DNA of 64,000 bases, from positions 53,424,026-53,488,025 of the forward strand of contig JARDVH010000025.1 of the NCBI GenBank assembly GCA_030324005.1, given 5' to 3'. The first letter of the stretch is position 1. Every line of letters starts with the position of its first letter. The position numbers and the translations under genes were made by a program. Below, piece by piece: positions 23,901 to 25,554 of the stretch. Below the pieces are notes generated by a model that was given only the letters and a program-made list of their open reading frames with translations, was not told the origin of the DNA and did not search any database. The DNA is from Negaprion brevirostris (lineage: Eukaryota).

Positions 23901-23954
23901 CTGGGTCATTATATATCAAGAAAAGCAATGGTCCTGAAATTGATTCTTGTGCAT

Positions 23955-24402
23955 TCTTTATTCATTTATGGAATGAGAGCATTGCTAGCTAGGGCTTCAT
24001 TTGTTGCCTATTCCTAATTGCCCTGGAAAGGCATAGTGATCTGCCTTCTGAAATTGCTGCGATTCACATTCCTAAGGTACTCAAACAGTGCTGTCGGGAG
24101 GGAGTTTCAGGATTTTGAGCCAGCAGAAGTGAAGGAACAGTTAGATAGTTCCAAATCATGATGATGTGTGACTGGGAGGTGGTGTTGGCGTGTGCCTACT
24201 TCCCTTGTCCTTCTAAGCAGTAGAAGTCATAGGTTTGGAAGTTGCTGTCAAAGAAACTTTGGCAAGTTGCTGCAGTACATCTTGTATTTAGTGGATACTG
24301 CTACCACTGCCTATCCACAGGGAAAGGTGAGGGCATTTAAGGTGATGGACAGGTTGCTGATTAAGCAGGCTGCTTTGTCCTGGAAAGTGTCAAACTTTTT
24401 GC
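23955..24402 (-). mobile_element. LINE 3' fragment sharing its tail with the 5358 SINE family
   Basis: catttgttgcctattcctaattgccctgg is the reverse of the gggcaattagggatgggcaa tail; continues into ORF2 C-terminal-like sequence. A + strand tail of the same type lies at 31368-31460. Confidence 0.65.
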
Positions 24403-24708
24403 TTTTTTTTTATACTTTATTCCAGTCCAATCAAATCGAATTCAGAGTCCCAACAAGTTGGGACGGTCCTGATCCAAGCTGACAAGACAGGGCTCTCACC
24501 TCCTGTCTTGGGCATGATCTACATGATCCAAGCTGATTGGAGTAGGTATAGCTCCTCCTCCAAGGCTCGATTTTGTTTGCAGCTTAGCCAAAAGGCCGAG
24601 ATGCCGCTTTAAAAAATTGCTTCAAATGAAGCTAAAATGTAACCTAATGACTTCAACCAAGTACAGCATGTCAATACTGCACTTGATCTTAGCCACTCAC
24701 TTGCCGAG
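24403..24708 (-). mobile_element. U2 snRNA-derived, polyadenylated SINE-like element
   Basis: Minus strand: 24674-24695 matches U2 nt 18-39 at 21/22, and 24583-24601 matches U2 nt 7-25 at 19/19 (U2 sequence from memory). Ends in AATAAA (24416-24421) and an A9 tail (24403-24411). Confidence 0.75.
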
Positions 24709-25554
24709 GTATTCCCCAGTCCAAAAACGCCAGTTCAACACTTCTCTACATTTGCCATCACTCAGGCATTTTTGCATACATATTTCCACTGTGCCTTTTA
24801 ATCCATAAGCTTCAACTTTGCTGCTAAGCCTGTTATGTGGCATTTCATCAAAAACCATTTGGAAATTCATGTGTGCTACACCAAAACTGCATTACCATCA
24901 TCAACTCTCTGTTACCTAATCAGAAAATTCAAACTAGTTAACTAAACACAATTTGCTTTTAATAAATCTATTTTGGCTTTCTTCACTTAATCCACACTCA
25001 TTCATGTGACTGTTAATTTTGTCCCAGATTATAGTTACTAATCACTTTTCCGCCACTGTGGTTAAGATGCTTGGCCTGCAGTTGCAAACTTTAGCTTTGT
25101 AACCTTTTATAACAAAGGTGTACTATTTGCAATTCTCCAGTCCCTTAGCACTACCCTGTACCTAAGGAGGATTGGAAGGTTATGGCTTTGCTCCCTTACA
25201 TTCTTCAGCATCCTCAGATGTATCACTCAGTTCGAGGGACTTATCAACTTTAAATTCTGTCAGCCTGTCTTAATCCTTCCTCTTTACCAATTTTGGCCCA
25301 TCCCATGCCTCAGTTGCCTCTTCTTTCATTACTTGATGTGTGCTTCAACTTTTCTCATACTATTCTCATATTAATAAAACAATTAAATTGTTAAACATTG
25401 TACAAATCAGGTGGAGCTGAGTTATTGATAAACAACCTCTGTTTCTGAAAAGGTAATTTGACAAATATGGAGACCCACCATCTCAGCATAACAACTAAAA
25501 TTAAAATAAAACAGTTAAAAGAAAAAATATTTTAAAGGTCTGTTTAGAAAGCTA

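Follow-up and report, generated by a model that had tools for sequence, protein, structure and literature searches.

A dispersed U2 snRNA-headed SINE family with a predicted self-pairing head and a probable Keno-like LINE partner

Results

The element in the window

The window, i.e. the whole stretch of 64,000 nucleotides that was analysed, carries at 24403-24695 on its minus strand a 5'-truncated member of a dispersed, poly(A)-tailed SINE family of about 320 nt. The window copy begins at family nt 18, and its non-CpG divergence from the family majority sequence is 4.5%. The whole element and its parts, the latter running from 5' end to tail, are the following.

24403..24695, minus: whole element, a 5'-truncated copy of the ~320-nt U2-headed SINE family
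24674..24695, minus: head, U2 snRNA nt 18-39 (family head nt 1-40), whose branch-site recognition sequence carries one private substitution
24641..24669, minus: antisense arm (nt 44-72 of the family), the predicted pairing partner of U2 nt 11-39
24619..24632, minus: predicted small hairpin (nt 81-94 of the family) with an oligo-T run behind it
24579..24604, minus: second U2 module, spanning U2 nt 7-25 in this copy and 7-27 in the family, a predicted extended stem I
24523..24572, minus: hairpin module A, with an outer stem closed by the first 13-mer and an inner stem-loop
24470..24519, minus: hairpin module B, a duplicate of A, with a 9-bp perfect stem and the second 13-mer
24447..24464, minus: 3' hairpin with a pair compensated across subfamilies
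24416..24421, minus: AATAAA, the poly(A) signal, preceded by a variable repeat of a pentamer
24403..24411, minus: A9 tail

Much of this anatomy had been recognized in a first-pass annotation and was recovered here. The match to U2 nt 18-39 at 24695-24674 agrees at 21/22 positions with the U2 gene of the genome itself (L031), the 13-mer is present at both 24470-24482 and 24524-24536, both perfect stems (24483-24510 and 24447-24464) are in place, and AATAAA (24421-24416) and A9 (24411-24403) are as claimed. The internal U2 copy, reported as nt 7-25, is indeed exact at 24601-24583, 72 nt downstream of the first match, but the family module consists of U2 nt 7-27 followed by a second piece resembling U2 nt 22/23-31. 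The base change described in the branch-pairing sequence is present in the window copy but is no family trait (C in 2/49 copies); being private to this copy, it is attributed to decay. The opening 6-mer and 7-nt spacer, which had been taken as the beginning of the element, had to be given up as a family feature: the family has an intact U2 head, and the window copy starts at nt 18. The 13 nt preceding that position may be flanking DNA, resembling an old repeat that continues downstream. Additional to the first-pass annotation are the antisense arm predicted to mask the head, the duplication of a 54-nt hairpin module that underlies the 13-mer repeat, and copies of the element inside U2 genes.

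When the window was searched with the U2 profile of Rfam (RF00004), no match was obtained at the gathering score, only a 15.7-bit fragment, and the body is unlike U2 nt 41-191 (score matched by 325/1000 shuffles); the opinion that this is not a plain U2 pseudogene was thus upheld. The body was also compared with an internally deleted U2 of the SINEU-3 type, hairpin A being reminiscent of U2 stem III, and this candidate was rejected (325 and 439/1000 shuffles). A target-site duplication was looked for at the ends of the window copy and none was found. This copy is flanked (23950-24401 and 24696-25300) by LINE-like repeats in a decayed state. The upstream repeat is presumably CR1-like; for the downstream repeat, matches at ~67% were obtained at other loci.

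Family size and marks of retrotransposition

A genome-wide copy search (2.69 Gb, gappy) with the window stretch returned 3651 first-look candidates, i.e. a dispersed family and not a single-copy locus; the 40 of these that were scored were 88-93% identical to the window copy. The genome is presumably that of a shark, a label that comes from the first-pass annotation and from the look of the flanking repeats. Exact 24-mers from the head-body junction and from the 3' hairpin occurred 610 and 663 times, respectively, with no occurrence of the controls. As few of the sampled copies keep these 24-mers exactly (2/7 and 0/12), a few thousand copies are likely. All 610 exact junction matches share one fixed joint at U2 nt 40, indicative of a transposing unit and not of a sum of independent chimeras. 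Since the whole unit recurs genome-wide (0 for reversed-pattern controls), the features seen in the window are far beyond chance. Loci picked by a 3' motif were the same element in 30 cases out of 30, with 18 reaching the head, 5 truncated and 7 ending at gaps.

The ends of the copies were studied in a set of 59 distinct copies whose flanks were clean, taken from the best matches, two samples of contig C1 and five U2-site loci, after copies with a gap near an end had been dropped. The start lies within U2 nt 1-18 in 52 of them. Target-site duplications, which the first-pass annotation had proposed to look for, were present in 13/59 copies (8-38 bp), compared to 0.5% of 600 shuffled pairs; the other 46, the window copy included, show none. 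This assay replaced an earlier one on the 30 best matches, in which 3-5 duplications were found. One copy (L121) displays a 5' inversion. Non-CpG divergence across 50 copies ranges from 1.6 to 14% (mean 5.3%), and linked variants suggest the existence of several subfamilies. At 9/58 loci a second copy or fragment lies within 1.5 kb, where ~0.2 would be expected, a figure to which gap artefacts may contribute. The earlier description of a non-autonomous U2-headed retroelement is thereby supported by the dispersed family, the duplications, the 5' inversion and A-tails joined to U2 nt 39.

The family has several features of the SINEU class: a 5' head of U1 or U2 snRNA origin (here U2), a non-coding sequence shorter than 500 bp (~320 nt) and AATAAA with an A-tail; oligo-T runs are visible inside the majority sequence. 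The majority sequence is predicted to fold strongly (z = -5.4). Modules A and B represent a duplication of a 54-nt hairpin closed by the 13-mer, the score of which was reached in 0/1000 shuffles, and in the 3' hairpin one pair is compensated among 50 copies (C-G in 23, U-G in 10, U-A in 11, unpaired in 6). At least half of the sampled family words are contained in 19 of the 24 runs listed, which carry nine organism labels and one of which may be the source, and no RNA data set appears among those listed; a metagenome scan with the SINE body yielded 0 matches.

Insertions at U2 nt 38|39

At seven loci (L055, L221, L203, L175, L184, L204 and L263) the SINE A-tail runs directly into U2 nt 39. When A-runs leading into U2 at nt 39 were searched for, 5 places emerged (control, 0). 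Two of these are LINE ends; the others are a SINE, a tail that lies behind a gap and a bare A-run. The total of seven was assembled with further exact patterns and from 48 Rfam U2 matches with their flanks. A looser tail-plus-U2 pattern gave mostly chance matches (145, against 77 in the control) and served as a source of candidates only. The apparent double copy at L055 probably represents a single copy, repeated on the two sides of a gap. At an eighth locus, L238, the head of the SINE follows nt 38 of a gene in a U2-variant array, with the upstream spacer intact; this head-side insertion shows targeting at the DNA level. The U2-site copies amount to 8 loci among thousands, and the specificity for the site is therefore weak.

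The partner LINE

A LINE family with 211 candidates in the genome was found at the same site. Its ORF1 carries ZCCHC3-type RBDs (PF23057/PF23058) and a zinc knuckle (PF00098), and the LINE also has a reverse transcriptase (PF00078) and an APE-type endonuclease domain (PF03372), the latter as a weak match below cut-off on an 85-aa piece. Homologues occur in fish and amphibians (40-55%); one is named 'transposon TX1', and no Keno-labelled sequence is among the 120 homologues listed. Tails of this LINE are joined to U2 within nt 39-46 at 5 loci, at nt 39 in L043/L054, L053 and L205 and at nt 43-46 in L238 and L239. At the opposite end, U2 5' pieces were found within 400 nt upstream at 23/30 LINE 5'-UTR loci, the remainder being 2 loci without upstream sequence and 5 without a match. 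These pieces vary in length and some are stacked; two LINE copies begin at +1 of array genes, and at L104 a SINE, a LINE and SINEs lie in tandem, head to tail. Judging by these features, the LINE is likely a Keno-like member of the Tx1 type, and mobilisation of the SINE by a Keno/Tx1 LINE, as suggested earlier, appears probable given that a Tx1-type LINE has U2 heads and uses this site as well.

No likeness was detected between the SINE body and the LINE, as the 3' UTR score was matched by 14/300 shuffles and the 5' UTR score by 56/300; what the SINE has in common with the one LINE family examined is limited to the U2 head and the motif of the poly(A) signal. The SINE body is thus not LINE-derived, and the partnership rests on a common site and head, not on a common tail. 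A candidate derivation of the SINE tail from the LINE 3' UTR (L103, L093) was dismissed, since a gap or another repeat lies between the two and the 3' UTR of other LINE copies is not the same.

In L282, L296, L272 and L274, two to four U2 5' fragments are stacked head to tail in front of the LINE 5' UTR, which suggests repeated template jumps.

Predicted fold-back of the U2 head

Family nt 44-72 were found to be largely complementary to U2 nt 11-39 at the RNA level: in the predicted structure 25/29 positions are paired (17 Watson-Crick and 8 G-U pairs), with two 2x2 internal loops. None of the 126,942 29-mers of the window reaches 24 pairs in register. The predicted energy is -28.1 kcal/mol, compared to -11.4 for the opposite strand, and was reached by 4/3000 shuffles of the arm. 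In a plain DNA alignment the arm does not reach significance as an inverted repeat (275/1000 shuffles), and repeat finders therefore miss it. The branch-site recognition bases have predicted pairing probabilities of 0.93-1.0. Two common variants preserve pairs 32:51 and 33:50, and all 8 transitions keep pairing (p ~0.02, an estimate); the window copy retains the inner 20 pairs. One LINE subfamily folds its own U2 1-35 head back in a similar way (3/2000 controls). The fold-back is thus predicted to bury the bases with which U2 recognizes the branch site and pairs with U6, suggesting a constraint on any RNA that borrows the U2 leader.

The source of the SINE RNA

At four of the seven loci whose tail runs into U2, all with unrelated flanks, the same subfamily tail is followed by U2 nt 39-47 and then by a second A-run, ~25-30 nt past AATAAA. 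From the arrangement of these sequences, we take them to be copies of a transcript from a putative master lying inside a U2 gene. L263 has, in addition, U2 nt 13-47 upstream of the SINE, which places the SINE inside U2 with a 9-11-bp duplication. An alternative explanation is insertion of the SINE into pre-existing short U2 retrocopies; against it, none of the 12 genome-wide matches to U2 38-47 plus A6 follows free U2 5' sequence and 3 follow a SINE tail, and L184 has no U2 upstream of the SINE. At L299, L303, L304, L306, L308 and L309, U2 38-47 is followed by an A-run of 8-10 with nothing recognisable upstream; these are possibly extreme 5' truncations of transcripts tailed with U2 39-47.

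A search with the U2 promoter returned 5 places, among which no intact promoter-borne master was found. At one of them, L061, a U2 promoter (84-89% to L031) is followed by U2 nt 1-40, 14 nt of SINE-like body and then a LINE fragment; this locus is decayed, and its junction is ambiguous in part, resembling the LINE as well.

Discussion

The reading that we favour, and consider rather probable, is that of a retroposon with a U2 1-40 head, copied by a Keno-like Tx1 LINE and transcribed from masters inside U2 genes. Its starting point is the observation that a joint with U2 at nt 38|39 is present in some copies of both SINE and LINE. The upstream U2 promoter would drive Pol II transcription of a master at that position, starting at U2 +1, and the RNA of this master would be polyadenylated by its own AATAAA, sometimes just past the duplicated U2 39-47. 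The U2 leader is then predicted to fold onto the antisense arm, burying the branch-site and U6-pairing bases; candidate purposes of such folding are keeping the RNA out of the spliceosome or providing a signal for the LINE proteins. Finally, the LINE endonuclease and reverse transcriptase would insert the RNA mostly at unrelated sites, the latter often appending further U2 5' pieces by template switching. A more general proposal, to which we give slightly less than an even chance, is that U2 genes act as launch pads for the pair of SINE and LINE: a promoter-less element inserted at nt 38|39 would be supplied with the U2 Pol II promoter, the captured leader would become the head, and selection would add the masking arm. 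If this is true, the family would represent a second, independent origin of snRNA-headed SINEs, and would provide a general answer to the question of how such SINEs are transcribed.

An alternative scenario, which we regard as unlikely while ranking it first among the alternatives, is that the head is added and not transcribed: RNA of the body would arise from host read-through, the Tx1 reverse transcriptase would jump repeatedly onto U2 snRNA 5' fragments, one chimera would have become the master, and the U2-site copies would reflect only the preference of the LINE endonuclease. Addition of this kind has been proposed for SINEU in the main text of Kojima 2015 (PMC4494074), and the stacked or variable U2 5' pieces seen here before LINEs (1-35, 1-41 and 1-48 to 1-58; L282, L296, L272, L274) and also before SINEs (L004 and L241) are in line with it. 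It sits less well with the single fixed junction at nt 40, with an antisense arm matched to the head, and with the copies bearing 3' U2 39-47 plus an A-run and the promoter locus L061. It appears improbable that the family is no SINE of its own but what is left, as a non-autonomous 5' UTR plus 3' UTR, of a Tx1/Keno or Utopia LINE that escaped sampling: the head-plus-fold-back design is common to a LINE 5' end and the AATAAA-plus-A tail resembles a LINE tail, but 0/30 of the 3'-anchored loci continue into LINE sequence and the body bears no likeness to the single LINE family studied. That it is a variant U2-like gene for a small RNA or a family of U2 pseudogenes, as the two U2 pieces and the strongly folded body might imply, is very improbable and largely refuted by the sub-threshold Rfam score, the body's dissimilarity to U2, the poly(A), the duplications and the thousands of decaying copies.

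The family works like the SINEU elements of crocodilians, from which it is set apart here by the published description of SINEU. According to the main text of that description, SINEU-1, -2 and -3 are reported only in crocodilians, with a preference for a Mariner element (Mariner-N4_AMi), and the transcription of SINEU, which has no internal promoter, was left open by Kojima 2015 (PMC4494074). As there described, the two share a U2-derived head, a length below 500 bp, a poly(A) tail, internal oligo-T and more than one U2 piece, as well as recurrent 5' snRNA additions, tandem insertions, a Tx1 partner with snRNA heads (Tx1-Mar there, the probable partner LINE here) and the lack of a common LINE tail (PMC4494074). 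The present family differs from what is described there in that its marked site is U2 nt 38|39 itself, with 3' U2 pieces carried along, and in that its head pairs with an antisense arm, no such arm appearing in the SINEU main text (PMC4494074). It offers a testable transcription route: some copies lie at the Keno site in U2 genes, and others, dispersed, bear U2 sequence from both sides of it.

In the published passages on Keno, the U2 flank from nt 39 is its 3' target (PMC6136364; PMC4640811). The partner LINE resembles Keno, as described in those passages, in its APE-type endonuclease and reverse transcriptase and in the same 3' U2 flank, and the SINE uses the site too; unlike Keno, the SINE is non-coding, and both SINE and LINE are mostly dispersed outside U2 genes. 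Utopia is described as inserting at the same U2 site, with weakened specificity and short U2-like junctions in reptiles (PMC4640811), features shared by the present elements, but also as having a restriction-like endonuclease and, in reptiles, 20-bp duplications (PMC4640811). The LINE found here is of the APE type, and the single U2-site duplication seen measures 9-11 bp, in contrast to this account of Utopia.

The present family would also resemble R2 as a promoter-less element dependent on the transcribed gene into which it inserts. R2 has no promoter of its own, relies on a transcribed host gene and cuts itself out of the transcript by a ribozyme. As the 5' ends observed here reach U2 +1, the leader appears to be kept and masked, and not cut off as in R2. 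Co-transcription of R2 elements with 28S rRNA is mentioned in the SINEU paper (PMC4494074).

Among the literature matches listed, a scope outside which the catalogues Repbase and Dfam lie, no U2-headed SINE occurs beyond the crocodilians. The family may already have an entry in a repeat catalogue, although we would sooner expect that it has none.

Other U2-derived sequences

Several further U2-related sequences were encountered in the genome. A bare A-run is inserted at U2 nt 38|39 in L053 (G000:C54127:88-109). A variant of U2, 84% to the main U2 gene, forms a tandem array with a 492-bp unit (L036-L038 / L140; G000:C157:37354999-37356174), and units related to this array were struck by LINE and SINE (L054, L053, L238, L269, L289). 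Full U2 genes ~81% identical to the main one, in which an additional A precedes the branch-site sequence, are found in L032:991-1183, L033:672-864 and L034; two of these three lie on small contigs and may derive from another organism. Dispersed U2 copies in L218, L222 and L237 begin at nt 37-39, lack an element upstream of them and extend 30-40 nt past the mature 3' end. In L203:1483 and L224:769, other RNA-like sequences directly precede U2 5' pieces; we tentatively take these to be a fragment of 5S rRNA and the 5' half of a tRNA-Pro, respectively.
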